DNA of 64,000 nt from contig CBDBCY010000004.1 in the NCBI GenBank assembly GCA_965203555.1, positions 136,961-200,960 on the forward strand. Reading direction: 5' to 3'. The stretch is from Acidimicrobiia bacterium. Its GTDB lineage: Bacteria; Actinomycetota; Acidimicrobiia; Spongiisociales; ZC4RG35. A program made the position numbers and the translations under genes. Under the pieces are notes generated by a model. The model had not been told where the DNA came from and ran no database searches. It saw nothing but the letters and a program-made list of their open reading frames with translations. This document shows positions 3,445 to 61,283 of the stretch, piece by piece. Each line of letters opens with the position of its first letter. The first letter of the stretch is position 1.

Positions 3445-4437
3445 ATGCTGGAGGATCGCCGCGCCGAGATATTGCGTTCCCTCGTGGAGTGCCACATACG
3501 GACCGGAGCCCCGGTGAGCTCCCAGATGGTCCTTGAGCACAGCGATCTGGAAGTCTCCCCCGCCACCGTCCGAAAAGAGTTGGCCCGGTTGGAAGAGGAC
3601 GGGTATGCAGACCAACCTCACACCTCGGCCGGCCGGATTCCCACGGCTGCGGCCTACCGCTTTTACGTGGACAACCATGCGGCCTTCCAGTTGCGCCGGG
3701 CGGTTCGCTCCCGCATCTCGTCTTTTTTCGCCGAGGTGGAGTTGGAATTGGACCGGTTGCTTCACTCCACTACCCGCCTCCTGTCCGACATCACCCGGTT
3801 GCCGGCGGTGGTGGTGGGTCCCCACCTGGCTGCGGAGCGCATTCGCAGCATTCACCTGGTGTCCCTGCAACTGCGTATGGCCCTGCTGGTCGTGGTCACG
3901 GAATCGGCGCGGGTACTGCAGGAGATCTGCCGCCTTCCGGCGCCTTTGACCGGAACGGAGATTTCGGAAATGGAGACGCTGCTTCGCAGTCACGCCCTGG
4001 GATCACCGCTCGGTTTGCCGGCCCCGCCCGCCGTTGCCGCGCCCGGGGTCGGGGGTCCGTCCTTTCAAAGTTGCTTCCAGGAGGTTTGGGACACCCTGGA
4101 GAGAACTGCGCGGCGAGCGTCCGATGTCTACGTGATGGGAACCGGACGATCGGCCCATCTGTGGGATGATCTGGATGCGGTCGCCCAGGTGTTGGGGGTG
4201 CTGGAGAGGGAGGCGGCAGTGCTCAACCTGTTGGCCGCCGATCCGGGCATCAACATCCGCATCGGGGAGGAGATTCCCGATCTGGAAATGGATCTGGCAG
4301 TGATCTCCACCTCGTTCATGGCCGGAAACTCCGCCGGACGGATTGGAGTCCTGGGGCCGATGCGCATGGACTACGGCCGTGCCATCTCGGTGTTGCAGAG
4401 AGTAAGCGCCGGGCTGGCCGATCGCATCGCCGTCTGA
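3445..4437 (+). CDS. hrcA: Heat-inducible transcription repressor HrcA
   Basis: 330 aa with the HrcA N-terminal winged helix (RRAEILRSLVECHIRTGAPVSS) and C-terminal domain. Followed by dnaJ as in the actinobacterial hrcA-dnaJ2 arrangement. Confidence 0.88.
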   Translation: MLEDRRAEILRSLVECHIRTGAPVSSQMVLEHSDLEVSPATVRKELARLEEDGYADQPHTSAGRIPTAAAYRFYVDNHAAFQLRRAVRSRISSFFAEVELELDRLLHSTTRLLSDITRLPAVVVGPHLAAERIRSIHLVSLQLRMALLVVVTESARVLQEICRLPAPLTGTEISEMETLLRSHALGSPLGLPAPPAVAAPGVGGPSFQSCFQEVWDTLERTARRASDVYVMGTGRSAHLWDDLDAVAQVLGVLEREAAVLNLLAADPGINIRIGEEIPDLEMDLAVISTSFMAGNSAGRIGVLGPMRMDYGRAISVLQRVSAGLADRIAV

Positions 4438-4450
4438 ACAACCGGTACCG

Positions 4451-5549
4451 ATGGCCAAGGACTATTACCAGATTCTGGGAGTGGATCGCGAAGCCGACTC
4501 CAACCAGATCAAGAGGGCCTTCAGAAAACTCGCCCGCCAGACCCATCCCGACGCCAATCCCGGAGATCCTCAGGCGGAAGCCCGATTCAGGGAAGTGGCG
4601 GAAGCATACGAGGTGCTGTCCGACCCGGATCGCCGCCGGTCCTATGACCAGGGGGAGCAGATCGACATCTCGGGTATGTTCGGTGATCTCGACGACCTGC
4701 TTCGCTCGGTATTCGGAGGGTCGGGTTTCTTTGGGGGTCAAGGCGCCTCTCAACGTTCCCGCGGGCAGGACATCCTGGTGAGAGTCGGACTGAGTTTGGA
4801 AGAGGCGGCGTTCGGCGTTGAAAAGAGAGTGGAATTCGAAGCCCAGGCGGCCTGTTCCACTTGTGGTGGGGACGGGGGCGGCCGCCGGGTCTGAGATAAC
4901 TTCGTGCCGGGGGTGTGGGGGATCAGGGATGCTGCGCTCCACGCGTTCCAGCTTCTTCGGGTCGATGGTGACTACCTCCACCTGTCTCCGATGCGGGGGG
5001 AGAGGTCGGGAAGTCACCCAGATCTGTGGAAAGTGCCAAGGCGCGGGTGTCCATCCCGAGCGTCAGGCTCTGAAGGTCGAAATACCGGCCGGGGTTTCGG
5101 AGGGAACTCGTCTCCGCCTGAGAGGCAGGGGGGCGGCCGCTCCCCTGGGAGGCATGCCGGGGGATCTGTATGTGGAGGTGCTGGTTCGTTCCGACAGCCG
5201 GTTTGAGAGAGAGGGGGACCATCTCTACCATCGGGTCACGGTCGGGATCGCAGAGGCGGCTCTGGGAGCGGAAGTGAAGATACCGCTGCTCGAGGGCGGC
5301 TTCCACACTCTTCGCGTCCCGCCCGGTACCCAGCCGGGATGGGTCAGTCGGCTGCCGGGACATGGAACGCCTCTCATGGGTGGAAGACGGAGGGGGGACA
5401 TGTTGGTGGAGGTGGAGGTTGAGATTCCCAGGACGGTTTCCCGTGAAGAGGAGGACCTGCTGAGAGAACTGGCCGACCTGCGAGGGGAGTCTCCGCTGCC
5501 TCGATCTTTTCGAAGGGCAAGACGCCGGAGATCCGGCAAAAGACGGTAG
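4451..5549 (+). CDS. dnaJ: Chaperone DnaJ (J domain, G/F region, 4x CxxCxGxG zinc finger, C-terminal domain). The reading frame is broken by a 1-nt insertion near 4870, so this may be a pseudogene or a sequencing error.
   Basis: Frame 1 (4451-4894) encodes the J domain (HPD motif) plus the first Cys repeat CSTCGG. Frame 2 (from about 4851) continues with CRGCGGSG, CLRCGGRG, CGKCQGAG and the C-terminal domain. The junction sits in a G run: ggtggggacggggg. Confidence 0.8.
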
Positions 5550-6014: not shown

Positions 6015-7013
6015 ATGAGCACTGAGACTGTTCACCGAGAGGTGGTGGTTCCCAGCCAACACCTGTTGCGGGATTTGCTGGGGACCAGCGATTCCTATTT
6101 TCGGGTGCTGCAGGAGTCCTTTCCGGAGGTGCGGATGGTGGCGCGCGGTGCCAACGTTTCACTCCGGGGCCCTTCGGACGAGGTTGGTTTGGCCGAGTCG
6201 GTGATCAATGAACTTCTCCTGCTCGTACAGGAGGGCGCCTCTCTGGCCGGACAGGTCGGTTCGGTAGTGCAGATGGTCCGAGATGATCTTCCCGATCCCG
6301 CCGTCGTGTTGAGCGCTACCTTGTCGGTGGGGCGCGGCAGACTGGTAAGAGTGAAGACCCACCGCCAGTTGCTCTATGTCCAATCCATTCGGGAGAACAC
6401 CGCCACCTTCGCGGTGGGCCCGGCCGGGACGGGCAAGACCTATCTGGCCATGGCGGCGGCAGTGGAAGCTCTGACACAGGGGAGTTGTCAACGAATCGTC
6501 CTGACCCGCCCGGCGGTGGAGGCGGGGGAGCGTCTTGGCTTTCTTCCCGGCGACCTTTCCGCCAAGGTGGATCCTTACCTGCGCCCCCTCTATGATGCGT
6601 TGTGGGCGATGCTGGGACCCGATGAGACATCCCGTTTGATTGATCGGGGAACAATCGAGATCGCACCTCTCGCCTATATGAGGGGCCGAACGCTCAACGA
6701 TGCCTGCGTCATCCTGGACGAGGCGCAGAACACATCTCCCGAGCAGATGAAGATGTTTTTGACCCGGCTGGGTTTCAACTCCAAGATGATCATCACCGGA
6801 GATCTCACCCAGACCGATCTCCCCTCGGGCCGCTCTTCCGGTCTGGAAGTGGTCCGGCACATTCTTGACGGGATTGCCGGGGTGGCCTTTGTGGAACTGA
6901 CCAGCCGGGATGTGGTGCGGCATCGGGTGGTCGCCGACATTATCGATGCCTACCAGCGTTATGAGACTTCCAACTTCGCGTCGGGAGGCCGGGCGAGAAG
7001 GGCCGAGAAATGA
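6015..7013 (+). CDS. phoH: PhoH-like ATPase
   Basis: Walker A motif GPAGTGKTYLAMAAAV plus the PhoH C-terminal domain. Conserved phoH-ybeY-corC-era neighbourhood. Confidence 0.9.
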   Translation: MSTETVHREVVVPSQHLLRDLLGTSDSYFRVLQESFPEVRMVARGANVSLRGPSDEVGLAESVINELLLLVQEGASLAGQVGSVVQMVRDDLPDPAVVLSATLSVGRGRLVRVKTHRQLLYVQSIRENTATFAVGPAGTGKTYLAMAAAVEALTQGSCQRIVLTRPAVEAGERLGFLPGDLSAKVDPYLRPLYDALWAMLGPDETSRLIDRGTIEIAPLAYMRGRTLNDACVILDEAQNTSPEQMKMFLTRLGFNSKMIITGDLTQTDLPSGRSSGLEVVRHILDGIAGVAFVELTSRDVVRHRVVADIIDAYQRYETSNFASGGRARRAEK

Positions 7014-9766
7014 CTACAGGAGATAGACGACCTCCCAGGACGGGAGAAAAGTCGCTGATCCGCGGCCTGCTGCTGGTGTCCACGGTGTTGCTGGCCTGGG
7101 CCACCCTGACCATCGGCGCCGCCAGCGGAGAAGTCGATCTGAGAGTAGGAGAGTTGGCCACCCGCAATTACGTCGCTCAGCGGAGCAGCGAGGTCACCGA
7201 CCAGGAGGCCACCGAGACTCTTCGTGAAGAGGAGGCTGCCCGAGTGGAGAGTGTCACCACCCGGGACGAGAGCATAGAACAACAGGTCAACGACGACCTG
7301 TCGCAGTTGTTCGAGGCGATCAGAAGCGGAGTGCTGGCGCCCGAACCGGAGTGGGTGGGAACCCTGTCGCTTCCTCCCACCAGTACGACCACTACAACCA
7401 CCACCGCTGCGGCCCAGCCCACGACCACCACGTCGCCGCCCACCACCGAGACGGTTCCACCCCTGCAAGGGGAAGAAACTCCCGAAGGCGGCACCGATGG
7501 TGAACAAACGCCTCCTGCCGAAAGTCAGGAACAGGAATCGGATGTAATCACTACCACCACCGAGGCGGCTCAGGCTGCTGAGACTCCCGGGACGAATGCA
7601 GTGACCACTGCGGAACAACCGGCCAGGATCAACCTCAGTGGGAGAGTTTTCCTCGATTTCGACTCGGACGCAGCCATCACCGAGTCGGGCGACTACCCGG
7701 ACTTGGGAGTGGAGTTGGTGACGGTCCGGGTCGTCTCTCTCGCCGGTGAGGGATATGACACCCAGACCGATGCCAACGGGCACTTTAGCATTGAGGTGCC
7801 GGAAGGGGTATGGGAGGTGGTGGTGGACAGCCAGGATTCTGATCTCCCTGCGGGTTTCACCATTTACCTTCCCGGGCGAAGCCAAACAGTGGTGTGTTTG
7901 GGACAGGGATCGGAGTGTGCCACGCAACCGGTTCCCTTCGTTCCGCTTCTCCGTTCCGCCCAGGTGCAAAACCAGGAGTTGATCCGTTCCTACCCGCAGT
8001 TGAACACTGGCACGGTGGCCACCATGGTGGAGGTTGCCCGCAACGATGTGATCCGGCAGGTATCGGACATTGCGCCCGGCTTGGTGGAGATCGAGAGGGC
8101 GGCCCTTACCTTGATGGTCGAATCTTTTGCCAACGAGATCAAGAGTGAGGACCTGCTCTCGGCCCAGAGCAGTATCCTGTCGGATCCGCCGGTGGTGTTC
8201 ATTGACAATGTGCGCAACCCGGCGGCTGGCGAAGCGGCCGCCGACATCGCCGCGTCCTTCCTGCGCCCGAATTCCCTGCTCGACACCCAGGCCACGGAGG
8301 AGTTGCGACAAGCGGCTCGAGAAGCCTTGGAAGAGGTTACGGTCTCCTATCGTTCGGGGCAGCCCATAATCGCCGAGGGCGAGCCTCTCACCCGACTGGT
8401 CATCGATGTCATATCGGCGACCGGAGCCGCCACCGGAAGACCCGTGCAGGAGGCCGGTGTGCTGGTGGTCCTGGGGGCGGTGGTGGCGGTGTTGTCTCTC
8501 TTCCTCTACAGGTTCCGCCTCGATCTTTGGGAACAGATCCCGCTGCTCACCCTGTTCGGGCTTCTCACCGTGCTGGCGGCCGGCGCGGTGCGGGGCGCCA
8601 CCTTCATAGGTGAGGTATTCGGATACGAAGTGGGCGTATATCTGCTCCCAGCGGTGGCTTTCGGGTACTTGACGGCGGTTCTCTTGGACAACCGGGTTGG
8701 GCTCCTGATGGCTATTGTCCTGGCGGTGGTGACGGCGGTCGGCACCCGCGACCCCGGCGCGACCACCTACGCGCTGCTGGCCACCCTGGCGCCGGTGGGA
8801 TTCGTCTCGGCGGCCTCGAGTCGCCGGGCCTTCCGCAATTCGGTGGCGGTCTCCGCGGCGGCCTTGGCGGTTATCGCAGCGGCCACTGCGTGGATATTTC
8901 ACACCAGCATCGCCCAGTCTCCGGTGGGGGTGATGCTGCAGGCGGGGGTGCTGGCGTTCGCCTCCACCCTGATAGCCGCTCTCGTGGCCCTGGCGTCCAT
9001 TGCCTTTTTCGAAGGCATCTTCGACGTGACCACCACTCTCCGTTTGCTCGACTTGACCGATCGCAACCACGAGGCCCTGCAATTGCTGCAAGAGAAGGCT
9101 TTCGGTACCTTCAATCATTCCCTGATGGTGGGGACGCTGGCCAGCGCGGCGGCAAAGGCGATCGGGGCCAACAATCTCTTGGCTCGCGCGGCCGCCTATT
9201 ACCACGATCTGGGTAAGACGGAGAACCCCGGATTCTTTATAGAGAACCAGTTCGGCGCCGTCAATCCGCATGACGAGATGAGACCCGAGGAGTCCGCCGA
9301 GGTGATCCGCCGGCATGTGTCCGACGGCATAAGCCTGGCGACCCGCTATCAAATCCCCTCATCGGTGAGGGAGGGGATCCTTACTCATCACGGCACCGGG
9401 ATAATACGCTATTTCTACGACAAGGCCCTGGGCTTGTACGGGGAGGAAAACGTCGATGTGGATGACTATCGACACATTGGGGCGAAGCCCCGATCCAAGG
9501 AAATGGCCATTGTGATGCTGGCCGACGGGGTGGAGGGAGCATGCCGGGCCGCTTTCCAGGTCAATTATGGGGAAGGCGCTCCTCCAGAGCCCACCCTGCA
9601 AGCCATTGCTGCGGTGATAGACGGGATCATCCGTGAAAAGATGTCCGATTACCAGTTGAGCGAAGCCTCCCTCACCTTCAGCGAACTTCAGGCGATTCGC
9701 AATGCCTTCGCGGAAGCGATGGCGGGTCACTACCATCAGCGCATTCGATACCCCAACTTTCCCTGA
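7010..9766 (+). CDS. 7TM receptor with intracellular HD-domain (HDIG) phosphohydrolase. It has a large N-terminal extracellular domain with a Thr/Pro-rich linker.
   Basis: 918 aa. Signal/TM at the N-terminus; multiple TM helices around aa 470-660; C-terminal HD motif (HSLMVG, YYHDLGK, HHGTG). Located between phoH and ybeY, where the 7TMR-HD protein usually sits. Confidence 0.8.
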   Translation: MTTGDRRPPRTGEKSLIRGLLLVSTVLLAWATLTIGAASGEVDLRVGELATRNYVAQRSSEVTDQEATETLREEEAARVESVTTRDESIEQQVNDDLSQLFEAIRSGVLAPEPEWVGTLSLPPTSTTTTTTTAAAQPTTTTSPPTTETVPPLQGEETPEGGTDGEQTPPAESQEQESDVITTTTEAAQAAETPGTNAVTTAEQPARINLSGRVFLDFDSDAAITESGDYPDLGVELVTVRVVSLAGEGYDTQTDANGHFSIEVPEGVWEVVVDSQDSDLPAGFTIYLPGRSQTVVCLGQGSECATQPVPFVPLLRSAQVQNQELIRSYPQLNTGTVATMVEVARNDVIRQVSDIAPGLVEIERAALTLMVESFANEIKSEDLLSAQSSILSDPPVVFIDNVRNPAAGEAAADIAASFLRPNSLLDTQATEELRQAAREALEEVTVSYRSGQPIIAEGEPLTRLVIDVISATGAATGRPVQEAGVLVVLGAVVAVLSLFLYRFRLDLWEQIPLLTLFGLLTVLAAGAVRGATFIGEVFGYEVGVYLLPAVAFGYLTAVLLDNRVGLLMAIVLAVVTAVGTRDPGATTYALLATLAPVGFVSAASSRRAFRNSVAVSAAALAVIAAATAWIFHTSIAQSPVGVMLQAGVLAFASTLIAALVALASIAFFEGIFDVTTTLRLLDLTDRNHEALQLLQEKAFGTFNHSLMVGTLASAAAKAIGANNLLARAAAYYHDLGKTENPGFFIENQFGAVNPHDEMRPEESAEVIRRHVSDGISLATRYQIPSSVREGILTHHGTGIIRYFYDKALGLYGEENVDVDDYRHIGAKPRSKEMAIVMLADGVEGACRAAFQVNYGEGAPPEPTLQAIAAVIDGIIREKMSDYQLSEASLTFSELQAIRNAFAEAMAGHYHQRIRYPNFP

Positions 9767-11500: not shown

Positions 11501-12388
11501 GTGAGATCGGGCTTCGTCTCGGTGGTGGGGCGGCCCAATGTCGGCAAGTCCACCCTGGTGAATTCCTTGGCAGGGCAGAAGGTTGCTATCACCTCTCATC
11601 GCCCCCAGACCACCCGAAACGCCATCCGGGCGGTGGTGACCGATCCCCACAACCAACCTCCCGACTGGCAGATGGTGCTGGTCGACACGCCCGGATTGCA
11701 TAAGCCCCGTAATGAGCTGGGTGAGCGGCTGAACCGGCTGGTGTACGGCGCCCTGGCTGATGCGGATGTGGTGGCCTTCCTGGTGGATGCCCGCCAACCG
11801 GTCGGGCCGGGGGATCGAAGGATCGCTCAACGCTTGGCCCAGGACCGGTCGAAGGTGGTGGTGCTGGTAAACAAGACGGACCGGTTCTCCAAGGAGAAAA
11901 TCGCGGTCCGGCTCATGGAGGTGGCCCGGTGGGACTTCGCCGCTTATGTGCCGATCAGCGCCTTGCGCGGTGACAATCTCCCGGCGGTGGTGGCGGAGAT
12001 CTGCGGCCGGCTGCCCGAAGGGCCGATGTACTTTCCCCCCGGCGCCGTCACCGATCAACCCGATTCATTTTTCGCCTCCGAGGTGATCAGGGAGAAGTTC
12101 CTGGCTGGATTGCACCAGGAACTCCCTCATTCGCTCTTGGTGGCGGTGGAGGATTTCCATGTCCGTGGGGATGGGCTGGTCACCGTCAGCGCCAAGCTGG
12201 TGGTGGAGAGTCCCTCCCAGAAGGGAATAGTCATTGGAAGGGGAGGCGCTCGTCTACGTGAGCACGGCACTGAGGCGCGACGGGAACTTGAGACGTTTTT
12301 CGGCGCCAAAGTGTACCTGGACCTGCGTGTGGTTGTGGAGAAGAAGTGGCAACGGAGGTCGGTGCTTTTGGATCGATTCGGGTTCTGA
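11501..12388 (+). CDS. era: GTPase Era
   Basis: GFVSVVGRPNVGKSTLVN (G1), DTPG, NKTD, and a C-terminal KH domain. The track ORF starts inside corC; an in-frame GTG at 11501 gives the usual Era N-terminus. Confidence 0.9.
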   Translation: MRSGFVSVVGRPNVGKSTLVNSLAGQKVAITSHRPQTTRNAIRAVVTDPHNQPPDWQMVLVDTPGLHKPRNELGERLNRLVYGALADADVVAFLVDARQPVGPGDRRIAQRLAQDRSKVVVLVNKTDRFSKEKIAVRLMEVARWDFAAYVPISALRGDNLPAVVAEICGRLPEGPMYFPPGAVTDQPDSFFASEVIREKFLAGLHQELPHSLLVAVEDFHVRGDGLVTVSAKLVVESPSQKGIVIGRGGARLREHGTEARRELETFFGAKVYLDLRVVVEKKWQRRSVLLDRFGF

Positions 12389-12624
12389 ACTGCTCGTTCG
12401 GGCAGATACGAACCCCCGCTGGCGGCGAGTGTTCGTGCCGCGGAGGGTTCTGTGCCTCTGTTATCTCGGGGTGAAAGCAGGGAAGTATGTCGAGATTTGG
12501 GGAGGGGCTACCTGTGGTTTAGTGCAAGGCGTGGGCCGATGACCCCAATGGTGGGGGTCCTCCACAATTCGGGTGCGTGAGATCGGAGGCCAGGAGCGAG
12601 TATGTGCAGGGAGAGCAAGGCATC

Positions 12625-13035
12625 CGGACACCGATGGGTTCCCCCTCTTTCCGGCTATCGCTTATCGAGATACTCCAAGACCTGTCGGAAACCCCGGTCG
12701 AGTTTCTCGTCCGTGGCCTGACGATTCACGTCTATTTTGACGTTGAGCAGGTGAATGTCGTGTTTCACCTCGGCGAAATCGTGTTTCACTTCGGCGATAT
12801 CCTGTTTCACCTCCGCGATGTCGCGTTTCACCTCGGAGATGTCGTTCCCGATGCGTCTCTGCAGGCTGTTGAGGGCATCGGCGGTCATCGAAGCGACGTC
12901 CTTGGCGTCATGCTTCCCGAGTATATCCGGGATCGGCTGTCAATGCCACAGACGCGTCCGCTGCTTGCCTGTGATCTCATCCGGTCCGTCCACCGCGTTC
13001 CAGGATCATCTTCTCTTTGTTCAGCGTCCTTGCTC
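12625..13035. repeat. Copy 1 of a roughly 410-bp direct repeat (the unit carries a small ORF on the minus strand plus conserved flanks). It contains one extra 27-nt unit relative to copy 2.
   Basis: Near-identical to 13101-13490, with scattered substitutions and a 27-nt indel inside the ORF. The copies are separated by a unique spacer of about 65 bp. Confidence 0.85.
12655..12888 (-). CDS. Small coiled-coil protein of unknown function, with 9-aa tandem repeats (DIAEVKxDx)
   Basis: 77-aa ORF MTADALNSLQRRIGNDISEVKRDIAEVKQDIAEVKHDFAEVKHDIHLLNVKID.... ATG preceded by an AAGGA-like RBS. Charged heptad-like repeats. The paralog 476 bp away mostly differs by third-position changes plus a whole-repeat indel, which suggests selection on the protein. 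Confidence 0.5.
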   Translation of the reverse strand: MTADALNSLQRRIGNDISEVKRDIAEVKQDIAEVKHDFAEVKHDIHLLNVKIDVNRQATDEKLDRGFRQVLEYLDKR

Positions 13036-13100
13036 TGGTAGCGGCCCTCTGTCGGGAGATCGGGAGAGTCGTTTCAATGTAGCAGGGATAGCATGGCAGT

Positions 13101-13490
13101 CGGACACCGATGGGTTCCCCCTCTTTCCGGCTATCGCTTATCGAGATACTCCAAGACCTGTTGGAAACCCCGGTCGAGTTTCTCGTCCGTGGCCTGACGA
13201 TTCACGTCTATTTTGACGTTGACCAGGTGAATGTCGTGTTTCACTTCGGCGATGTCCTGTTTCACCTCCGCGATGTCGCGTTTCACCTCGGAGATGTCGT
13301 TCCCGATGCGTCTCTCCAGGCTGTTGAGGGCATCGGCAGTCATCGAAGCGATGTCCTTGGCGTCCATGCTTCCCGAGTATATCCGGGATCAGCTATCAAG
13401 GCCACAGACGCGTCCGCTGCTTGCCTGTGATCTCATCCGGTCCGTCCACCGCGTTCCAGGATCATCCTCTCTTTGTTCAGCGTCCTTCTT
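13101..13490. repeat. Copy 2 of the direct repeat
   Basis: Aligns to 12625-13035 with period 476 bp. Confidence 0.85.
13131..13367 (-). CDS. Paralog of the small coiled-coil repeat protein (one fewer 9-aa repeat). The alternative start at the second Met gives 13131..13343.
   Basis: 78-aa ORF MDAKDIASMTADALNSLERRIGNDISEVKRDIAEVKQDIAEVKHDIHLVNVKID.... The upstream ATG is frame-shifted out in copy 1, so the conserved start is probably MTADALN. Confidence 0.5.
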   Translation of the reverse strand: MDAKDIASMTADALNSLERRIGNDISEVKRDIAEVKQDIAEVKHDIHLVNVKIDVNRQATDEKLDRGFQQVLEYLDKR

Positions 13491-13595
13491 TTGGCAACGG
13501 CTCTCAATAACACAGAAACCAATGGCGCAGACCAAGGCCGTTCGTTTACTGAAGTAGAGCATTTTGCTGTTGTCTGATATCCTTATTGGTGCATT

Positions 13596-18699: not shown

Positions 18700-19020
18700 A
18701 TGCTCCGCGGTGATGTCTGGTGGCTAGCCTTCGACTCTGCCGTCGGGGGTGCGATCCGCAAGACGAGCCCGGCCGTCGTGGTCAGCAATGACGCCGCCAA
18801 TCGGGTACTAAACCGGGTTCAGGTCGTGGCCCTGACGTCGAATGTAGGGAGACTCTATCCCAGGGAGGCATATGTCGAGGTCTCGGGCAAGCAACACAAG
18901 GTCATGGCAGATCAGATCGCGACCGCGGCGAAAGGTCGACTGCGTCGCAGGATCGGCCGGATCTCGGATGCCGACCTGTCCGGGATGGAACGAGCTATCC
19001 GGATACAACTCGGCCTGTAA
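18700..19020 (+). CDS. mazF: MazF/PemK family endoribonuclease toxin
   Basis: 106 aa. [10 protein letters not shown]...[26 protein letters not shown] matches the MazF/PemK signature. Confidence 0.82.
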
Positions 19021-23155: not shown

Positions 23156-23199
23156 GAGGCATTGCTGTGGCTGCTGACCGAGGGCATCGTCTCCTGCGC

Positions 23200-25284
23200 A
23201 TGCGTCAGGTGCCCCTGAGTCGCACCCGCAATATCGGAATCATGGCCCACATCGATGCAGGAAAGACCACTCTGACCGAGCGGATTCTTTACTACACCGG
23301 TCGCAACTACAAAATCGGGGAGGTCCACGAGGGCGCCGCCACCATGGATTGGATGGCACAGGAGCAGGAGCGGGGAATCACCATCACCTCTGCCGCCACC
23401 ACCTGTATCTGGCACGATCACAGCATCAACATCATCGACACTCCGGGTCATGTCGATTTCACCGTCGAGGTGGAACGTAGTCTTCGAGTCCTGGATGGGG
23501 CGGTGGCGGTATTCGACGGGGTGGCGGGAGTGGAACCACAGTCGGAGACGGTGTGGCGGCAGGCCGACCGCTACGAAGTTCCCCGCATCTGCTTCATCAA
23601 CAAACTCGACCGACTGGGGGCGGACTTCTTCGCCGATGTGGAATCGATCCGCACCCGACTCAACGCAACACCTCTGGTGGTCCAACTGCCCGTGGGTGAG
23701 GAGAGTGATTTCCGAGGTGTTCTGGACCTGGTGGAAATGCAGATTCACGAGTGGCGGGGGGACGACGGCAGGCACTGGGACACCGGCGACATCCCCGAAT
23801 CGATGCAGGACCTGGCTTATGAATACCGGGCGCGGATGTTGGAGCAGGTAGCCGAGGTTGACGAGAAACTCCTGATCAAGTTCCTCGAAGATCTGTACAT
23901 AACCCCCGACGAGATCCGAACCGCTATCCGTACGGGGGTGCTTCAGCACATGTTCGTGCCGGTGCTTTGTGGTGCGGCCTTCAAGAACAAGGGAGTGCAG
24001 CCGCTGCTTGACGCCATTGTCCACTATCTGCCCAGCCCCTTGGACCTTCCTCCGGTGAAGGGTTTCGCCCCCAAGAATCCGGAACAGGTTCTGGAACGGA
24101 AGGCCAATGACGACGAGCCATTTTCGGCTCTCGCCTTCAAGATCATGAGCGATCCCCACGTCGGCAAGCTCACCTATTTCCGGGTCTATTCGGGCTCGGT
24201 CTCCAAGGGCGGCGCGGTGTTCAATACCACCAACGGCAAGAAGGAGCGCCTGGGACGGCTGCTTCGCATGCATGCCAACCATCGTGAGGATGTCAACATT
24301 GTTTACACCGGTGACATCGTGGCGGCGGTGGGATTGCGACACACCACCACCGGCGACACCCTTTCCGGTGTCGGTCACCCCATCAGCCTGGAATCGATGG
24401 CCTTTCCCGCGCCGGTTATCTGGGTAGCCATCGAGCCTCGCACCAGGGTTGACCAGGACAAGTTGTCCGAGTCCCTGCAAAAGCTGTCGGAGGAGGACCC
24501 GACCTTTCTGGTGAGAAGTGACGAAGAGACCGGGCAAACCATCATCTCGGGAATGGGCGAGCTCCACCTGGAGGTATTGGTGGACCGGCTGATCCGGGAA
24601 TTCAAGGTCGCGGCCAACATCGGTAAGCCGCAGGTCGCCTATCGAGAATCAATCCTGTCGGCCGTAGAGAAAGTGGAAGGCCGTTACGTCCGCCAGAGTG
24701 GCGGCCGGGGTCAGTACGGTCATGTCGTCATCGACATCGAACCCACCGGTCCCGGAGGAGGTTACGAATTCGTCAACAAGATCAGGGGCGGTCGCGTCCC
24801 CCGTGAATACATTCCGGCGGTGGCCGCCGGCATCGGAGAGGCTCTCGATGGGGGTATCCTGGCGGGCTACCCGGTGGTGGATGTGCGGGTCACCCTGGTT
24901 GACGGTTCACATCATGAAGTAGATTCTTCCGAACTGGCCTTTCGGATAGCCGGTTCCATGGCTGTTCGCGCCGCCACCAACAAGGCGGGGCTGAAACTGC
25001 TGGAGCCGGTGATGGAAGTCGAGGTGGTCACTCCCGACGAGTACATGGGAGACGTGATCGCCGACATTTCCGCTCGCCGGGGCCGTATTGGAGAAACCGA
25101 TCAGCGGGGATCGGCCCGGCTAATCACCGCCGCCGTACCGCTGGCCGCAATGTTCGGCTTTGCTACTGATATCCGGTCCAGGACTCAGGGGCGAGCAACG
25201 TATTCGATGCAATTCAAGGCTTACCAAGATGTTCCTGACTCTATTTGTCAGGACATCCTTCATTTGAGAACTGGTAAGTATTAG
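23200..25284 (+). CDS. fusA: Elongation factor G
   Basis: [31 protein letters not shown] domains II-V. ATG at 23200 (alternative GTG at 23167). The last roughly 45 codons are noticeably lower-GC. Confidence 0.95.
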
Positions 25285-26508
25285 AAATGGGGGTGTTTGG
25301 TTGTGGGTAAGGTGAGGTTTGAGCGGGTGAAGCCGCATTTGAATGTGGGTACTATGGGTCATATTGATCATGGGAAGACTACGTTGACTGCTGCGATTAC
25401 TAGGGTGTTGTCTGAGCGGGTTGGTGGGGTGAATGTGGTGACTGGGTTTGATGATATTGATCGTGCTCCTGAGGAGCGTGAGCGGGGTATTACGATTCAG
25501 ATTGCGCATGTTGAGTATGAGACTGTTTTGCGTCATTATGCGCATGTGGATATGCCGGGGCATGCGGATTATATTAAGAATATGATTACGGGGGCGGCTC
25601 AGGTGGATGGGGCGGTGTTGGTGGTGTCGGCGGTTGATGGTCCGATGCCGCAGACTCGTGAGCATGTGTTGTTGGCGCGGCAGGTGGGTGTGCCGCGGAT
25701 TGTGGTGTTTTTGAATAAGTGTGATTTGGTGGATGATGGTGAGTTGTTGGATTTGGTGGAGTTGGAGGTTCGGGATTTGTTGACGGAGTATGAGTTTCCG
25801 GGTGATGATGTTCCGGTGGTGAGGGGTTCGGCGTTGTTGGCGTTGGAGGGTGATGTGGTGGCTGGTGATGGGGTTATGGAGTTGATGGATGCGGTTGATG
25901 GGTATGTTGATGTGCCGGTTCGGGATGTGGATCGTCCGTTTTTGATGCCGATTGAGGATGTGTTTTCGATTACTGGTCGGGGTACGGTGGTGACTGGTCG
26001 GGTTGAGCAGGGTGTGTTGCGGGTTGGTGAGGCGGTTGAGGTGGTTGGTTTGCGTGATACGCGTGGGTCGGTGGCTACTGGTGTGGAGATGTTTAGGAAG
26101 TTGTTGGATGAGGGTCGGGCTGGTGATAATGTGGGGGTGTTGTTGCGGGGGGTGGGGAAGTCGGAGGTGGAGCGTGGTCAGGTGTTGGCTGCTCCTGGGT
26201 CGATTTTGCCGCATGTGGGTTTTGAGGCGCAGGTGTATGTGTTGACGAAGGAGGAGGGGGGGAGGCATAATCCGTTTTTTTCGGGTTATCGTCCGCAGTT
26301 TTATTTTCGGACTACGGATGTGACGGGTTCGGTGTTGTTGCCTGTTGGGGTGCAGATGGTGATGCCGGGTGATAATGTGGAGTTGTCGGTGGAGTTGATT
26401 GCTCCGATTGCGATGTCGGTGGGGTTGGATTTCGCGATTCGTGAGGGTGGTCGGACTGTGGGGGCGGGTCGGGTCACCAAGATCACCAAATAACCCCAAA
26501 CCCAAGAA
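25283..26508 (+). repeat. 1.2-kb direct repeat (copy 1) containing tuf. Essentially identical to 61421-62648.
   Basis: Identical from agaaatggggg... through ...aaataacccc, with only a C-run length difference after the stop. Confidence 0.9.
25303..26493 (+). CDS. tuf: Elongation factor Tu (copy 1, in the str operon) with extremely atypical composition: A/C-depleted codons that nearly all end in G or T
   Basis: [43 protein letters not shown], a complete EF-Tu. GTG at 25303 (TTG at 25297 is in-frame upstream). Confidence 0.9.
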
Positions 26509-26583
26509 GGCAAAGGATTGTGGACAACAACCGGCAAGGGCAAGTAGAGAATAAGCCGAGCAAGCGAGGACAGTAGAAGAGAC

Positions 26584-26895
26584 ATGAACGGTTCCCATAA
26601 GATCCGCATAAAGCTCAAGGCTTATGACCATCAGAGTGTGGATGAGTCAGCGCGCAAGATCGCTGCTACGGTTACTCGTACCCAGGCCAAAATAAGAGGT
26701 CCTGTTCCGTTGCCTACCGAGATCCACAGATACTGCGTTATACGCGGACCCCATGTCGATAAAGACTCCCGGGAACACTTCGAGATGCGCATTCATAAGC
26801 GGTTGATCGATATCTTGGATCCAACCGCTAAAACGGTTGATTCATTGATGCGCCTTGATCTTCCTTCCGGAGTGGAAGTAGAGATAAAGCTGTGA
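26584..26895 (+). CDS. rpsJ: 30S ribosomal protein S10 (low-GC codon usage; uses ATA/AGA/AAA codons)
   Basis: [21 protein letters not shown]...[17 protein letters not shown]. Confidence 0.95.
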
Positions 26896-45930: not shown

Positions 45931-45984
45931 GAAAGGAGGAATTTCCCACCCCACAACTCGGCGTGCAGCGGAGTTATCTCACAA

Positions 45985-46150
45985 CAAACAAGCGCCAGGC
46001 CTCTTGAACCGCCGGTCGGCGGATTCCGGAGGTGACGAGGAGGAAGGCGATCGAATCTTTCGGCGGATGCCTTTCCGGCCACCACAGTCGTGACGATCGG
46101 AGCAAATCCCGCCGGTAACGGCGGGGACAAAAGACGGTCGAAGTGGAGCG
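45985..46150 (+). ncRNA. glmS_ribozyme: glmS ribozyme (GlcN6P-responsive self-cleaving riboswitch) in the 5' leader of glmS
   Basis: Contains AGCGCCAGG... (P1/cleavage-site region) and the core block GACGAGGAGGAAGGCGATCGAATCTTTCGGCGGATGCCTTTCCGGCC. The latter is nearly identical to the conserved P2/P2.1 core of Bacillus-type glmS ribozymes (GACGAGGAUGGAGGUUAUCGAAUUUUCGGCGGAUGCCUCCCGGCUG). Sits about 50 nt upstream of the glmS ATG. Confidence 0.8.
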
Positions 46151-46196
46151 TTCCGCAATGCGCGCGCAGAGGGGGTTTGTGGAAATTGGCGCGATC

Positions 46197-48032
46197 ATGT
46201 GCGGAATAGTTGGTTATGTTGGCTCCCGCCCTGCTCGAGATTTGTTGCTGGGTGGTTTGGCCCGGTTGGAGTACCGGGGCTACGACTCGGCGGGAATGGC
46301 TATCGGTCAGAACGGCGCATTGACAAGTGTCCGACAGGTTGGAAAGATCTCCGATCTGGCCGCGGTGGTCCAGGAAGGTTCGGAGTCTTTCCCCGGGGGG
46401 TATGGAGTCGGGCATACCCGATGGGCGACTCACGGGGCGCCCACCACTCCCAATGCTCACCCTCACTTCGATTGCTCGGGGGAGGTGGCGATCGTCCACA
46501 ACGGGATTATTGAGAATTGGACGGAGTTGAAGGCTTGGTTGGAAGGCCGGGGGCACGGATTTGCCTCCGACACCGACACGGAGGTGGCCGCCCATCTCAT
46601 CGAGGAACTGTCTTCGCTCCCCCTGTCAGAGGCAGTGGCGCAGGTCCTGCGACGCTGTGAGGGCGCCCTGGCCCTGGCGGTGATTCGCCGCTCCGATCCA
46701 GGGCTGGTTGTGGGAGGTCGGAAGGGAAGCCCGCTGGTGATCGGCCGGGGATCGGGGGAGAATTTCCTGGCTTCCGACATCCCTGCGTTCATGGCCCATA
46801 CCCGTCGCATGATGGTGGTTCCCGAAGATCGGGTGGTGGAGATCCGCTCGGACTCGGTGCGCATCACCGACCTACGCGGACAGGAGCAGGAACCAGAGGA
46901 ACGGGAGGTGGAATGGGACGTGGAGGCCGCCGAGAAGGGCGGCTATCCCACTTTCATGCTCAAGGAGATATACGAGCAGCCCAAAGCCGTGGCGGAGACC
47001 CTGTTGGGACGCATCAGTTCCACCGGTCTGCCCATGCTGGAGGAAACGGGAGTGACCGCCGAGATTGCCAAGGACGTGGACAAGGTGTTCGTGGTGGCCT
47101 GCGGTACCTCCTATCACGCCGGGATGATGGCCAAATACGCATTGGAGCGATGGGCGAAGCTTCCGGTGGAGGTAGATCTGTCCTCGGAGTTCCGGTATCG
47201 AGATCCGGTTCTCAACTCCCGCTCGCTGGTGATCGGCATCAGCCAGTCGGGAGAGACTGCGGACACTTTGGGCGCGATCCGATATGCGCTCGGACAGGGC
47301 GCCCGGGTGGCGGCGGTGACCAACGTGGTCGGATCGTCGCTGGCCCGAGAGGCGCACATGGTGCTGCAAACCAGGGCGGGCCCCGAAATCGGAGTGGCGG
47401 CTTCCAAGACCTTCATCACCCAGATGGCCCTGCTTCAACTATTGGGTCTGCATATGGCCATCGAGCGAGGCGTGATGAGTCCCGCAGAAGCGGCAGGGCC
47501 GGTGAATGCGCTGCGCAGCCTGCCTGATCGGCTCGATGAAGTGTTGGGCCTTTCCGATCAGATGCTGGAGTTGGCGCAGGAGTGGCGGGACGTGCGAGAT
47601 TTCTTCTTCCTGGGCAGGTCTGTCGACTATCCGGCGGCTCTGGAAGGCGCCTTGAAGCTGAAGGAATTGTCCTATGTGCGAGCCGAGGGTTATGCGGCCG
47701 GTGAGATGAAGCACGGTCCCATCGCCCTGATCGAGCCGGGAGTGGTGGTGATCGGAGTGGCCACCGACCGCCGGCTGCGTCCCAAGATGTTCTCCAATCT
47801 CTCGGAGATGAAGGCGCGGGGCGGTACGGTGGTGACCCTGGTCGGAGAGGAGGACCGGGCCGAGGCGGCAATCACCTCCGATCTGGTGATAACCCTTCCC
47901 GAAGACGCTGATCTGATCGGAGCGGTGCTGGCAGTGGTTCCGCTGCAACTCTTCTCCTACCACCTTGCCACCCTCAAGGGACTGGACGTCGACCAACCCC
48001 GCAACCTTGCCAAGACGGTGACCGTGGAGTAG
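46197..48032 (+). CDS. glmS: Glutamine--fructose-6-phosphate aminotransferase
   Basis: MCGIVGY (Cys2 nucleophile) and two SIS domains. ATG at 46197 (the track ORF extends upstream across the ribozyme). Confidence 0.95.
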   Translation: MCGIVGYVGSRPARDLLLGGLARLEYRGYDSAGMAIGQNGALTSVRQVGKISDLAAVVQEGSESFPGGYGVGHTRWATHGAPTTPNAHPHFDCSGEVAIVHNGIIENWTELKAWLEGRGHGFASDTDTEVAAHLIEELSSLPLSEAVAQVLRRCEGALALAVIRRSDPGLVVGGRKGSPLVIGRGSGENFLASDIPAFMAHTRRMMVVPEDRVVEIRSDSVRITDLRGQEQEPEEREVEWDVEAAEKGGYPTFMLKEIYEQPKAVAETLLGRISSTGLPMLEETGVTAEIAKDVDKVFVVACGTSYHAGMMAKYALERWAKLPVEVDLSSEFRYRDPVLNSRSLVIGISQSGETADTLGAIRYALGQGARVAAVTNVVGSSLAREAHMVLQTRAGPEIGVAASKTFITQMALLQLLGLHMAIERGVMSPAEAAGPVNALRSLPDRLDEVLGLSDQMLELAQEWRDVRDFFFLGRSVDYPAALEGALKLKELSYVRAEGYAAGEMKHGPIALIEPGVVVIGVATDRRLRPKMFSNLSEMKARGGTVVTLVGEEDRAEAAITSDLVITLPEDADLIGAVLAVVPLQLFSYHLATLKGLDVDQPRNLAKTVTVE

Positions 48033-61103: not shown

Positions 61104-61187
61104 GCCGGGATACCCAAGCGGCCAAAGGGAGCAGACTGTAAATCTGCCGGCGATGCCTTCGGAGGTTCAAATCCTTCTCCCGGCACC
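61104..61187 (+). tRNA. tRNA-Tyr (anticodon GTA), long variable arm
   Basis: Acceptor gccggga/tcccggc; anticodon loop CTGTAAA; T-loop GGTTCAAATCC. Confidence 0.85.
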
Positions 61188-61209
61188 GGCTTTCCCGCAA
61201 AGACCAAGC

Positions 61210-61283
61210 GCCCCCTTAGCTCAGACGGCCAGAGCGCCTCCATGGTAAGGAGGAGGTCTCCGGTTCGAATCCGGAAGGGGGCT
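61210..61283 (+). tRNA. tRNA-Thr (anticodon GGT)
   Basis: Acceptor gccccct/agggggc; D-arm GCTCAGACGGCCAGAGC; anticodon loop ATGGTAA; T-loop GGTTCGAATCC. Confidence 0.85.

Follow-up and report, generated by a model that had tools for sequence, protein, structure and literature searches.

Tuf genes almost confined to G- and T-ending codons in part of the class Acidimicrobiia: composition, distribution and possible causes

Results

The two tuf loci

The window analyzed here is a stretch of 64,000 nucleotides from an Acidimicrobiia bacterium. It carries the tuf gene, encoding EF-Tu, twice. The fraction of third codon positions occupied by G or T is referred to as GT3. The following features were identified:

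18700-19020, in the window: gene of a PemK/MazF-family toxin
23167-25284, plus strand: fusA (EF-G; TIGR00484, 1063 bits), adjoining tuf in the gene cluster and serving as internal control
25120-26631, minus strand: antisense ORF of 503 aa, a non-genic by-product lying in the codon-aligned antisense frame
25283-25302, plus strand: tuf leader in the duplicated block, devoid of C and consisting of AGAAAT, a Shine-Dalgarno-like GGGGG run (25289-25293) and a G/T-only spacer, TGTTTGGTT
25303-26493, plus strand: tuf copy A (EF-Tu of 396 aa, TIGR00485 match), last gene of the rpsL-rpsG-fusA-tuf cluster, with a GTG start at 25303 and a TAA stop at 26491-26493
25303-26472, plus strand: 390-codon G/T-ending stretch interrupted once, by TTC at 26431, with G or T closing the other 389 codons
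26473-26497, plus strand: exempt 3' end, GTC ACC AAG ATC ACC AAA TAA followed by CCCC, within the identical block
26494-26583, plus strand: tuf-rpsJ spacer with A 0.41 and T 0.07, a composition opposite to that of the tuf coding sequence
61104-61390, plus strand: tRNA-Tyr, tRNA-Thr and tRNA-Met, clustered just upstream of tuf copy B (ARAGORN, Rfam)
61387-62955, minus strand: antisense ORF of 522 aa over copy B in the codon-aligned antisense frame, a by-product
61421-62635, plus strand: exact 1215-nt duplicate of 25283-26497, containing tuf copy B (coding sequence 61441-62631, GT3 0.98)
62632-62740, plus strand: 3' flank of copy B, rich in A and C and poor in T (A 0.37, C 0.32, T 0.08)

The tuf product matched the NCBIfam model TIGR00485 with 687.8 bits (cutoff 522.4), covering residues 1-395. 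The GTPase motifs, GSAL among them, were intact as read in the translation, and the HVDMPGH form of the EF-Tu motif is that of the majority of relatives (33 of 45 sequences).

There were zero mismatches between the two 1215-nt blocks, and identity was lost beyond both edges. Copy A is found in the context fusA-tuf-rpsJ and copy B in the context tRNA-Tyr/Thr/Met-tuf; the tRNA-Met-tuf junction recurs at three loci (L001, L002, and L003). The tufA and tufB genes of enterobacteria undergo concerted evolution through gene conversion, and the arrangement there is like the one found here, with one copy after fusA, one after a tRNA cluster, identical coding sequences and unrelated flanks. In a sister genome the two tuf copies differed at 6 sites, and tuf paralogues within a genome were more alike than orthologues between genomes. 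Gene conversion probably keeps both copies identical. The enterobacterial precedent accounts for this identity but not for the strand-asymmetric composition described below.

Codon and base composition

The third codon position of tuf was occupied by G 229 times, T 161 times, C 5 times and A twice. Thus 390 of 397 codons (98.2%) end in G or T, which has a binomial probability of 4e-96 given the window background of 0.53. About 75 other ORFs of the window, called by a simple ORF heuristic, had GT3 values of 0.34-0.65, compared to 0.98 for both tuf copies. An earlier note on this DNA had described the third positions of tuf as nearly all G or T, and the per-gene tabulation, which places tuf outside the range of the other ORFs, agrees with this. 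The same C- and A-ending codons were also recovered, i.e., TTC at 26431 and, within 26473-26493, GTC, ACC, ATC, ACC, and AAA together with the stop codon TAA. As previously described, Leu was encoded by TTG alone (34 of 34) and Arg by CGG (15), CGT (10), and AGG (5) alone. For Ser, the expected TCG (10) and TCT (1) were found, whereas AGT, listed along with them, was never used. Several of these codons (TTG, AGG and those ending in T) are rare elsewhere in the genome. The choice between G and T varied by codon family (chi-square p = 1e-4), and preferences were left among the allowed codons for GGT over GGG, CCG over CCT and GTG over GTT. This family-specific choice shows that selection is still effective at the allowed tuf codons.

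Over the G/T-ending stretch the G+T content was 0.75-0.77 in 600-nt windows (mean of the whole 64,000 nt 0.535, sd 0.047). On the coding strand of tuf G+T amounted to 0.75-0.78, and the GC skew reached +0.65. Each tuf gene contains 144 C residues compared to approximately 410 in normal homologues, 62 YC dinucleotides compared to approximately 200, and 13 RNCNU motifs compared to 41-46; the last reduction is a direct consequence of the lower C content. C-minus-G calculated per 78 nt fell within the lowest 0.1-5% of the window across most of tuf. The sense strand had been considered prone to G-quadruplex formation, but no canonical motif (four runs of at least three G, loops of 1-7) was found in tuf despite 43 GGG runs.

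The neighboring genes did not share the composition of tuf. The third positions of fusA were C in 273 cases (0.39), G in 231 (0.33), T in 125 (0.18), and A in 77 (0.11), in accordance with the C/G-leaning codons noticed earlier. At locus L084 all 18 other genes, including 14 ribosomal-protein genes and fusA, had GT3 values of 0.44-0.59. The GT3 of groEL was 0.42. The genes flanking tuf were ordinary in every lineage checked; genes other than tuf were called throughout by a simple ORF heuristic.

The first and second codon positions had been regarded as normal, and this did not hold. A was depleted at position 1 (0.18 compared to approximately 0.26 in relatives) and at position 2 (0.26 compared to 0.32), while T was raised at position 1 (0.17 compared to 0.08). 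EF-Tu itself had gained Val (65 compared to approximately 41), Gly (47 compared to approximately 37), and Arg (30 compared to 21), and had lost Lys (10 compared to 17-24, approximately 18), Thr (23 compared to 35), and Ile (16 compared to 25). The derived amino acid changes included A>T 11 times and A>G 10 times.

The codon-aligned antisense frame is free of stop codons because A is missing from the sense third positions. Opposite the G/T-ending stretch the antisense ORF is essentially restricted to 11 amino acids (H, R, L, I, T, P, Q, N, S, K, and M) plus one E, and both termini differ between the copies. An overlapping antisense gene was therefore rejected, and the antisense ORF had rightly been taken for a side effect of the composition of tuf.

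Leader, 3' end and flanking regions

The absence of C from the 20-nt leader was confirmed. The leader was kept in all six of the sister-clade tuf genes retrieved (6/6). Distant lineages with the tuf pattern have an ordinary A/C-rich leader with AAGGAG, and in most other lineages the leader stays rich in A and C as far as the start codon.

The depletion was even along the tuf coding sequence and came to an end 5-35 codons (18-100 nt) ahead of the stop codon in all lineage groups. The last five or so codons had a normal frequency of C-ending codons (0.50-0.63) in all groups, the extreme one included, and the approximately 33 codons before them were partially exempt in intermediate lineages. The other intergenic regions, when pooled, had A 0.23 and T 0.21, compared to which the tuf-rpsJ spacer is A-rich and T-poor. 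An intrinsic terminator was looked for after tuf copy A and copy B, and none was found. The spacers adjoining tuf change fast in evolution, and the 3' flanks of tuf do not stand out as rut-like Rho-loading sites.

Distribution among lineages

Six tuf genes with GT3 values of 97.5-99% and a protein identity of 88-98% were found in sister Acidimicrobiia, in five independent public assemblies. In one sister genome both tuf paralogues carry the pattern, and the neighborhoods fusA-tuf-rpsJ and tRNA-Met-tuf-MaoC-sigma-secE-nusG are conserved in the sister genomes. Beyond the sister clade, Acidimicrobiia-like lineages had a patchy tuf GT3 of 0.38-0.94, with tuf alone being affected, and across lineages the values were graded (0.38, 0.64, 0.73, 0.82, 0.90, 0.94, and 0.98). 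Lineages with high and with normal GT3 adjoin one another in a rough neighbor-joining tree, which was built on EF-Tu itself. In normal relatives A-ending codons make up 0-5% and T-ending codons 3-6% of tuf. A search of the literature found no published account of the C/A-avoidance pattern of tuf.

The window by itself could suggest an artefact, a synthetic insert or a horizontally acquired foreign allele, since the codons resemble the NNK design of synthetic libraries and the exact repeat has sharp edges. However, the pattern was seen in contigs of long-read style (ptg..., ctg...), SPAdes NODE contigs, a GenBank chromosome-level MAG and JGI contigs originating from different samples. The copies in other assemblies are truly diverged, gene order is conserved in the sister genomes, and intermediate states exist. 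Synthetic NNK recoding was rejected on account of the diverged natural counterparts in many independent assemblies, and synthetic or in-silico recoding, the first of three causes proposed in the earlier note, is excluded by the sister genes and the graded forms in many other metagenomic lineages. A foreign allele, also proposed there, is excluded since both copies lie in conserved neighborhoods and EF-Tu groups with other Acidimicrobiia-like EF-Tu sequences. Taken together, explanations of this kind can be given next to no weight, and the G/T pattern of tuf is a natural inherited trait in part of the class Acidimicrobiia.

Order and direction of the nucleotide changes

Compared to two sister genomes, neighboring genes differed at 42-47% of the synonymous third positions, which is close to saturation, with all types of change represented. 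In tuf, 364-373 third positions could be compared; 43-46 of them differed (approximately 12%), and 39-44 of these 43-46 differences were exchanges between G and T, in keeping with a continuous maintenance of the pattern. G<->T exchange in tuf thus occurs at about the neutral transversion rate.

The earlier note had expected a natural relative of the tuf block to differ from it only at synonymous C<->T and A<->G sites. Where normal relatives have C, the window had G at 30 sites and T at 26, G thus being no less frequent than T. In early-stage lineages Ala, Pro, Thr, Val, and Arg shift from C-ending to G-ending codons, and the Pro codon CCC is lost first. CC, CCC, and CCA were the first k-mers to vanish from tuf across lineages, and NCC codons were more depleted than NGC or NTC codons. 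For Phe, Tyr, His, Asn, Asp, and Ile the codon usage goes from almost 100% NNC to almost 100% NNU across lineages, with Phe, Asn, and Ile holding out the longest. The number of ACA trinucleotides per tuf gene dropped from approximately 21 to 0.2 in the extreme clade, AAC and CCC dropped to 0, and other A/C-only trimers to no more than about 2. A sequence in which each third base is G or T cannot contain an A/C-only trinucleotide. Among the polarized changes within the clade at positions 1 and 2, G<->T exchanges accounted for 12 of 35 and C>T plus A>G for 6 of 35.

Discussion

A mutational origin

The pattern could be ascribed to a strand-specific mutation pressure, where C and A are lost by deamination or depurination from the exposed non-template single-stranded DNA of the highly transcribed tuf gene, perhaps in R-loops favored by its G-richness, with the function of the protein preserved by purifying selection. 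In highly expressed bacterial genes, deamination of cytosine on the non-transcribed strand gives rise to a small strand asymmetry. Francino and Ochman, and Beletskii and Bhagwat, reportedly described a transcription-associated asymmetry with an excess of G+T on the coding strand, which is the direction observed here in a highly expressed gene. The end state in tuf further fits C and A being unstable and G and T being absorbing, G and T exchange at a roughly neutral rate, and the composition drifts into the amino acids of EF-Tu in the same way as in genome-wide cases elsewhere.

The known shifts are, however, small and affect entire transcription units and numerous genes, whereas the effect in tuf is near-absolute, limited to one coding sequence, ends inside it, begins with C to G and has flanks of the opposite composition. 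Early-stage lineages replace C by G and not by T, the derived replacements involve A>T no less often than A>G, and C>T plus A>G make up a minor part of the changes at positions 1 and 2. These same observations disfavor C>T/A>G hypermutation, the remaining cause put forward in the earlier note, while its general idea of a strand-specific and gene-limited force that leaves the protein functional holds. A mutation pressure would also have to end 5-35 codons before the stop codon, next to fast-evolving spacers without a detected intrinsic terminator, and in other lineages it would have to spare leaders that are A/C-rich up to the start codon. The ribosomal-protein genes, fusA and groEL are at background, i.e., there is no scaling with presumed expression, and the tuf pattern showed no correlation with the GC skew of the flanks. 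Finally, the family-specific choice between G and T reveals effective selection at the very sites concerned. We therefore find a mutational origin unlikely, and the changes in tuf are apparently a matter of C avoidance rather than of C>T conversion.

A changed translational optimum

Translational codon bias, for which tuf is a textbook example, likewise leads to near-exclusive use of a synonymous subset with residual family preferences. The G/T-ending codons could be those decoded best, for instance owing to changes in the tRNA pool or in wobble modification, with the strongest effect in tuf as the most expressed gene. Near-absolute codon choice is usual for tuf, as seen from the few A- and T-ending codons of normal relatives. 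The persisting family preferences and the late conversion of Phe, Asn, and Ile agree with this as well. On the other hand, ribosomal-protein genes, fusA and groEL retain C-ending codons in the same genomes, so that the preferred set is not common to them. Moreover, a single tRNA normally serves both NNC and NNU codons, and because of this tRNA supply cannot explain the switch between them from 0% to 100%. Unlike codon bias, the pattern thus splits codons that normally share a tRNA. It also reaches beyond codon choice, as the non-coding spacer between Shine-Dalgarno sequence and start codon is G/T-only in the clade and the amino acid composition itself shifts to G/T-rich codons, while the last codons are exempt. 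A changed translational optimum is accordingly a very improbable explanation.

Escape from a toxin

EF-Tu could be made under an active toxin if its message escaped one sequence-specific nuclease, either MazF/PemK or a ribosome-dependent RelE/HigB, that needs A or C. Escherichia coli MazF spares messages without ACA, so that synonymous choices can make a message immune to a nuclease. The PemK/MazF-family gene in the window, the near-complete loss of ACA, AAC, and CCC from tuf, and a patchy distribution among lineages resembling that of mobile toxin systems are all in favor of such an escape. However, a single short motif can be dodged by few changes and does not require the loss of every C and A; one motif is removed in the MazF case, compared to a base class over 390 codons, and amino acids, here. 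Cleavage in the ribosomal A-site does not fit the exempt last codons or the G/T-only non-coding spacer. We consider escape from one toxin improbable.

Selection on the tuf gene or its message

The explanation we favor, giving it slightly less than an even chance, is that a persistent selection acts against cytidine, C runs above all, and against adenine, either in the sense strand of tuf or in its mRNA. Judged from the order in which codons change among lineages, this force would strip cytidine first, especially where it occurs in runs, and then adenine, while sparing the neighboring genes. The next-best codon without C is chosen in each family, i.e., a G-ending codon in four-fold families, GGT for Gly and TTG for Leu, and the two-fold families (Phe, Asn, Ile, and Tyr) are the last to surrender their C-ending codon. 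At four-fold sites G and T are still freely interchangeable. In the clade of the window the synonymous sites are by now exhausted, and the pressure has apparently entered the protein, with Lys, Thr, Ile, and Glu giving way to Val, Gly, Leu, and Arg. A message poor in C may escape readers of C-rich single-stranded RNA, and the tuf mRNA could thereby be completed and outlast the messages of its neighbors.

Termination factor Rho is one candidate for such a reader. Rho-dependent termination acts at C-rich and G-poor untranslated RNA, and Rho loads on such RNA and acts some distance downstream. As expected from avoidance of Rho, which predicts loss of C runs and gain of G over the gene body together with relaxation over the last ~100 nt, the RNA along tuf is C-poor and G-rich and the constraint is relaxed near the 3' end. 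If Rho is responsible, the last 5-35 codons would be exempt because Rho acts downstream of its loading site. Nevertheless, Rho-dependent termination is a general mechanism, and neither a response in tuf only, nor enrichment of T, nor loss of A is predicted by it.

A second candidate is the actinobacterial RNase E, which may cut immediately 5' of cytidine as in mycobacteria. Over 90% of the cleavages mapped for the mycobacterial enzyme lie 5' of C, and its RN|CNU sites are concentrated in UTRs and intergenic regions (PMC10641625, PMC6448022). Neither of these two papers mentions tuf (0 occurrences) or reports a link between C content and tuf. The enzyme is from the same phylum and is a C-specific reader of single-stranded mRNA, and for such a reader a C-poor tuf between A/C-rich spacers would be a stable, excisable unit. 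It differs from the present case in that the 3' exemption and the loss of A are not accounted for, and the specificity of the Acidimicrobiia enzyme may differ. There is no obvious reason for RNase E cleavage to spare the last codons, and the C residues remaining in tuf showed no tuning of their context against RN|CNU (preceding wobble base, Fisher p = 0.14-0.70). A sequence-specific toxin nuclease, or another nuclease reading C, could also be the effector.

Some observations argue against selection on the message. The restriction to tuf is unaccounted for, as ribosomal-protein genes, fusA and groEL are spared, and neither Rho nor RNase E predicts that A should be lost from positions 1 and 2. 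In addition, the A/C-rich leaders beside tuf would themselves be good targets for factors reading C.

More tentatively, and as something less likely than not, we suggest that tuf is written in a private "keto" code that hides its message from Rho, C-specific RNase E, toxin nucleases or other readers of C/A-rich single-stranded RNA, whether these belong to the cell or to competitors; an even less conventional alternative would be a strand-specific mutation or repair process targeted to the locus. If selection on the message is indeed the cause, EF-Tu would be made, or its message kept, while other messages are terminated or cut. Selection would then also have been strong enough to replace roughly one residue in ten of one of the most conserved proteins.

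Third Codon Positions of tuf in the Window

Two copies of tuf, encoding EF-Tu, are found in the window:

25303-26493, + strand: tuf copy A, start codon GTG at 25303, stop codon TAA at 26491-26493
61441-62631, + strand: tuf copy B

Both are contained in an exact repeat; 25283-26497 is identical to 61421-62635 with zero mismatches, and identity is lost at both block edges. Copy A is preceded by fusA and copy B by tRNA-Tyr, tRNA-Thr, and tRNA-Met. The product is a full-length EF-Tu (TIGR00485 match of 687.8 bits vs. a cutoff of 522.4). The third codon positions of copy A were found to be G in 229, T in 161, C in 5, and A in 2 codons. The seven A- or C-ending exceptions were exactly those listed in the earlier note, i.e., the TTC codon at 26431, the stop codon, and five of the last six sense codons, of which four end in C and the final one is AAA. 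Leu was encoded by TTG at 34 of 34 positions and Arg by CGG, CGT, and AGG only. Ser had been described as encoded by TCG, TCT, and AGT; the first two are used, but AGT was absent from the codon count. The fusA gene, located 18 nt upstream of tuf in the same frame, had ordinary third positions (C 273, G 231, T 125, and A 77). Tabulation of each gene, as proposed in the earlier note, gave a fraction of G or T at third positions (GT3) of 0.34-0.65 in about 75 ORFs of the window, called by a simple ORF heuristic for genes other than tuf, vs. 0.98 in both tuf copies. The excess in tuf relative to a background of 0.53 has a binomial probability of 4e-96.

The only other place in the window where one phase was at least 85% G/T across 40 or more codons was 7360-7626 (- strand). 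It is antisense to a 7TM-HD receptor gene (7010-9766, + strand) and is probably an effect of the composition of that gene. The last 28 codons of fusA (25201-25284, + strand), just before tuf copy A, were T-ending in 13 of 28 cases vs. 18% over the whole of fusA. This enrichment was much weaker in the equivalent stretch of L004, a tuf locus retrieved from another genome, and may be due to chance. The + strand of the window, which carries nearly all ORFs, has a strong overall excess of G over C (21748 vs. 17627, skew +0.105). The skew of tuf flanks was +0.04 to +0.09 in sister genomes and about 0 in lineages with a tuf GT3 of 0.8-0.94.

Two features apart from tuf were also observed:

12606-13505: unit of roughly 455-476 nt in two tandem copies of 92-97% identity, each holding a 21-nt internal tandem repeat (12758-12845; 13231-13300); the ORFs at this unit (12234-12542 and 12577-13041) had no Pfam match
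45980-46150, + strand: glmS ribozyme/riboswitch (Rfam RF00234, 86.7 bits) immediately preceding the ORF 46143-48032

The Pattern Is Natural and Native to the Lineage

The exact EF-Tu protein of the window was absent from the public collection when looked up with either start codon. The closest public proteins had 94-98% identity, followed by a step to 88% and then to about 85%. DNA was retrieved for four close relatives, with two long contigs from separate samples (names ptg... and ctg...) and one SPAdes contig among them, and one of the two long contigs yielded both tuf paralogues. The tuf genes of these relatives had a GT3 of 0.975-0.99, while their neighboring genes had 0.44-0.60. A scan of one genome per species also located OZ242375.1, a chromosome-level MAG labeled Acidimicrobiia, where tuf (96% protein identity, GT3 0.98) was found in the same fusA-tuf arrangement. 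The sister sequences differed mutually at many third positions and are therefore independent natural alleles rather than copies of one record. The presence of such divergent alleles in independent sister assemblies excludes a synthetic origin, as raised in the earlier note, as well as assembly artefact and contamination.

Sister genomes had the same gene order at each of the two loci (rpsL-rpsG-fusA-tuf-rpsJ and tRNA-Met-tuf-MaoC-sigma-secE-nusG), and the EF-Tu of the window grouped with other Acidimicrobiia-like sequences. Consequently, tuf cannot be a foreign allele, which had been another proposal. A MaoC-like dehydratase gene is located 3' of tuf copy B (window 62741-63784 and downstream). 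In two sister loci (L001 6298-8297; L002 2021-3848) this gene is followed by a sigma-70-family gene and a small ORF, and then by secE-nusG-rplK-rplA. Loci of other lineages (L003, L102, and L149) carry rpmG directly 3' of tuf in place of the MaoC-like gene.

A Graded Trait Confined to tuf

Outside this extreme clade, tuf GT3 ranged from 0.38-0.45 up to 0.94 across genome and metagenome loci. Taxon labels are those deposited with the MAG records, and JGI loci were called Acidimicrobiia-like by similarity only. Normal lineages (0.38-0.45), Candidatus Poriferisocius among them, used C-ending codons as in Streptomyces. Two Microthrixaceae MAGs had values of 0.64 and 0.73, two Ilumatobacteraceae MAGs 0.78 and 0.82, and several further unnamed lineages 0.82-0.94. 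The genes adjoining tuf had a GT3 of 0.38-0.60 in every lineage checked. The extreme composition is thus the end point of a graded trait that is confined to tuf.

In a rough neighbor-joining tree, built on the affected EF-Tu protein itself and with lineages that are statistically non-independent, high and normal GT3 lineages were interleaved (e.g., 0.86 beside 0.42 and 0.94 beside 0.42). This tree suggests that the trait is evolutionarily labile and has probably been gained or lost repeatedly within one bacterial class. A weaker shift limited to tuf, in which G-ending codons were clearly more frequent and C-ending codons less frequent than in the neighbors, was found in MAGs labeled Acidobacteriota, Rokubacteria, and Alpha-/Gammaproteobacteria (loci L009, L015, L019, L013, and L031, with tuf at about 4001-5190 in each). 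In L009, G-ending codons made up 0.59 and C-ending codons 0.18 of tuf vs. about 0.33 and 0.34 in the neighbors. The same avoidance of C specific to tuf may be widespread in a weak form.

Exclusion of C and A Is Maintained

When the window was compared to two sister genomes, 42-47% of the synonymous third positions of fusA, rpsJ, rplC, and rplD differed, with all types of change present and transitions dominant. For tuf only 12% differed, and 39-44 of the 43-46 differences were G<->T exchanges, which accumulated roughly as fast as expected of this transversion. Changes within the clade were polarized with L003 as outgroup. At third positions this gave 47 G>T, 34 T>G, and 4 changes of other types; at the first and second positions 12 of 35 changes were G<->T and 6 of 35 were C>T or A>G. 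These comparisons indicate that the C and A states were excluded from tuf throughout the divergence of the clade, i.e., that the constraint is maintained continuously.

Order of Codon Loss and Changes in EF-Tu

Lineages were ranked by tuf GT3 to obtain the order of events. In the four-fold families (Ala, Pro, Thr, Val, and Arg) the C-ending codons were lost first and replaced by G-ending ones, with Pro CCC being the earliest codon lost. Gly shifted to GGT, and Leu shifted early from CTG/CTC to TTG. His and Asp switched to T-ending codons in the middle of the series, and the C-ending codons of Phe, Asn, Ile, and Tyr were kept longest. The earliest k-mers lost were CC, CCC, and CCA, and NCC codons were more depleted than NGC or NTC. 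At four-fold sites with a consensus C in normal relatives, the window has G at 30 and T at 26. The choice between G and T among the allowed codons varied by codon family (p = 1e-4); selection is therefore still active at these positions.

The amino acid composition of EF-Tu was normal up to a GT3 of 0.94 and shifted only in the clade of the window. Here, Val (60-66 vs. about 41), Gly (46-50 vs. about 37), and Arg (29-32 vs. about 22) were increased, while Lys (9-11 vs. about 18), Thr (23-29 vs. about 33), and Ile (15-17 vs. about 25) were reduced. The frequency of A was 0.18 vs. 0.25 at codon position 1 and 0.26 vs. 0.31 at position 2. This depletion and the shifted composition contradict the earlier description of these two positions as normal. 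Once synonymous sites were exhausted, the pressure passed into the protein sequence.

Boundaries of the Pattern

The depletion of C was uniform along the coding sequence. Among approximately the last 5 codons, the share ending in C was normal (0.50-0.63) in every group, the extreme clade included, and the approximately 33 codons preceding them were partly exempt in intermediate lineages. In L005 (GT3 0.82), 17 of 19 codons within the last 20 of tuf (5131-5191) end in A or C. Seven of the codons at this 3' end are A-ending, a class otherwise nearly absent from that gene, and the end gives the impression of active enrichment in A/C, not of a mere lack of conversion. In the clade of the window the pattern begins at the GGGGG ribosome-binding run, and the non-coding spacer is G/T only; other lineages have an ordinary, mostly A/C-rich leader with the pattern beginning at the start codon. 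Among the intergenic regions of the window, the 3' spacers of the two copies are the poorest in T (T 0.07-0.08 and A 0.37-0.41 vs. 0.21 and 0.23 in pooled intergenic sequence). Their composition is kept between sister genomes even though their sequences have diverged. No intrinsic terminator was found 3' of either tuf copy, no antisense promoter of consequence was found at tuf, and Rfam identified only tRNAs as known RNA elements near the gene.

By-Products and Rejected Explanations

The long antisense ORFs (503 and 522 codons) are by-products, as had been suggested, since the lack of A at sense third positions leaves the codon-aligned antisense frame free of stops. Over the G/T-ending stretch they consist of essentially 11 amino acids, a composition that rules them out as genes, and the ORF of copy A ends differently from that of copy B on both sides. 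The sense strand had been considered prone to form G-quadruplexes; no canonical motif was found in tuf.

The mean predicted MFE of 120-nt segments was -31 kcal/mol in the tuf of the window, compared to -43 kcal/mol in normal tuf and -35 kcal/mol in fusA. Minimization of mRNA structure was nevertheless rejected as the cause, since the difference is modest and a sequence rich in purines or in A/C would lower structure further. Off-frame sense stop codons were increased (57 vs. 9-13 normally). They were rejected as the cause because T was not favored before GA/AA/AG codons (p = 0.07-0.86) and the change of C to G would create no stops. Duplexes predicted between the 5' leader and the C/A-rich 3' tail had energies of -17 to -26 kcal/mol, no better than with shuffled tails (fraction at least as good 0.15-0.94), and no lineage-specific matching of leader and tail was seen. 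Anti-Shine-Dalgarno stickiness was dismissed by reasoning alone, since the pyrimidine-rich 16S tail would favor A/G and not G/T in the message. The 3' flanks were rejected as Rho-dependent terminators because their C-minus-G values reached no more than the 74th-93rd percentile of the window. The GC skew of the genome was likewise rejected as a correlate (Spearman rho 0.24, p = 0.16).

Possible Causes

Hypermutation by deamination, as proposed in the earlier note, predicted that T would rise first, that transitions would dominate, that the whole transcription unit would be covered, and that other highly expressed genes would be hit. None of this was seen: C was first replaced by G in the series, C>T and A>G contributed few of the polarized changes, the flanks had the opposite composition, and the ribosomal-protein genes were ordinary. 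Codons ending in C and U normally share one tRNA. Ordinary translational selection is inadequate as an explanation because the effect is absent from ribosomal-protein genes, splits codons normally read by one tRNA, and reaches non-coding spacer sequence and amino acids.

Judged from sequence, the pattern fits a selective penalty that would act on cytidine in the tuf sense strand or transcript. It would be heaviest on runs of C, extend later to adenine, and be traded off against translational preferences. Rho binds C-rich, G-poor RNA and terminates transcription downstream of its loading site. A role of Rho as reader of the transcript would fit the disappearance of C runs at an early stage, the rise in G, and the relaxation toward the 3' end; C-minus-G per 78 nt placed most of tuf within the lowest 0.1-5% of the window. 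RNase E is another candidate, which would fit the phylum and the position of a C-poor coding sequence between A/C-rich spacers. The mycobacterial enzyme cut 5' of C at >90% of mapped sites, and UTRs and the spacers of operons held more of these sites than expected (PMC10641625, PMC6448022). RNCNU motifs numbered 13 in tuf vs. 41-46 in homologues. A toxin nuclease could also be considered, given a toxin gene in the window:

18700-19020, + strand: type II toxin gene of the PemK/MazF family (Pfam PF02452, E = 8e-21), flanked by an isocitrate/isopropylmalate dehydrogenase gene and nadA; rpsL follows about 3.3 kb downstream

This gene may or may not be related to the tuf pattern. No fine-tuning was found in the context of the remaining C residues of tuf. 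Neither Rho, RNase E, nor a toxin nuclease accounts for the response being limited to tuf or for the loss of A at positions 1 and 2, and the identity of the effector is offered as a hypothesis and not as a finding.

Significance

No description of this tuf pattern was found in a search of the full-text literature. The components, i.e., codon bias, strand asymmetry, avoidance of nuclease sites, and tuf gene conversion, are already known. We believe that what is new is the combination of a near-complete exclusion of C- and A-ending codons, in one gene, graded across a class, and with an altered EF-Tu protein. We classify it as a gene-specific synonymous constraint, and the underlying mechanism has a real chance of being new as well.

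Synonymous sites are usually regarded as weakly selected. Here, approximately 390 such sites of one gene were kept in a two-letter alphabet while those of its neighbors neared saturation. The pressure on tuf overrides normal translational preferences and reshapes EF-Tu in the extreme clade. Analyses of codon usage, horizontal transfer, or phylogeny with tuf as marker will be misled in these lineages because of composition-driven convergence of amino acids. Should tuf have been shaped by escape from termination or cleavage that depends on C, these bacteria would provide a natural experiment on how composition sets the fate of one mRNA within an operon.
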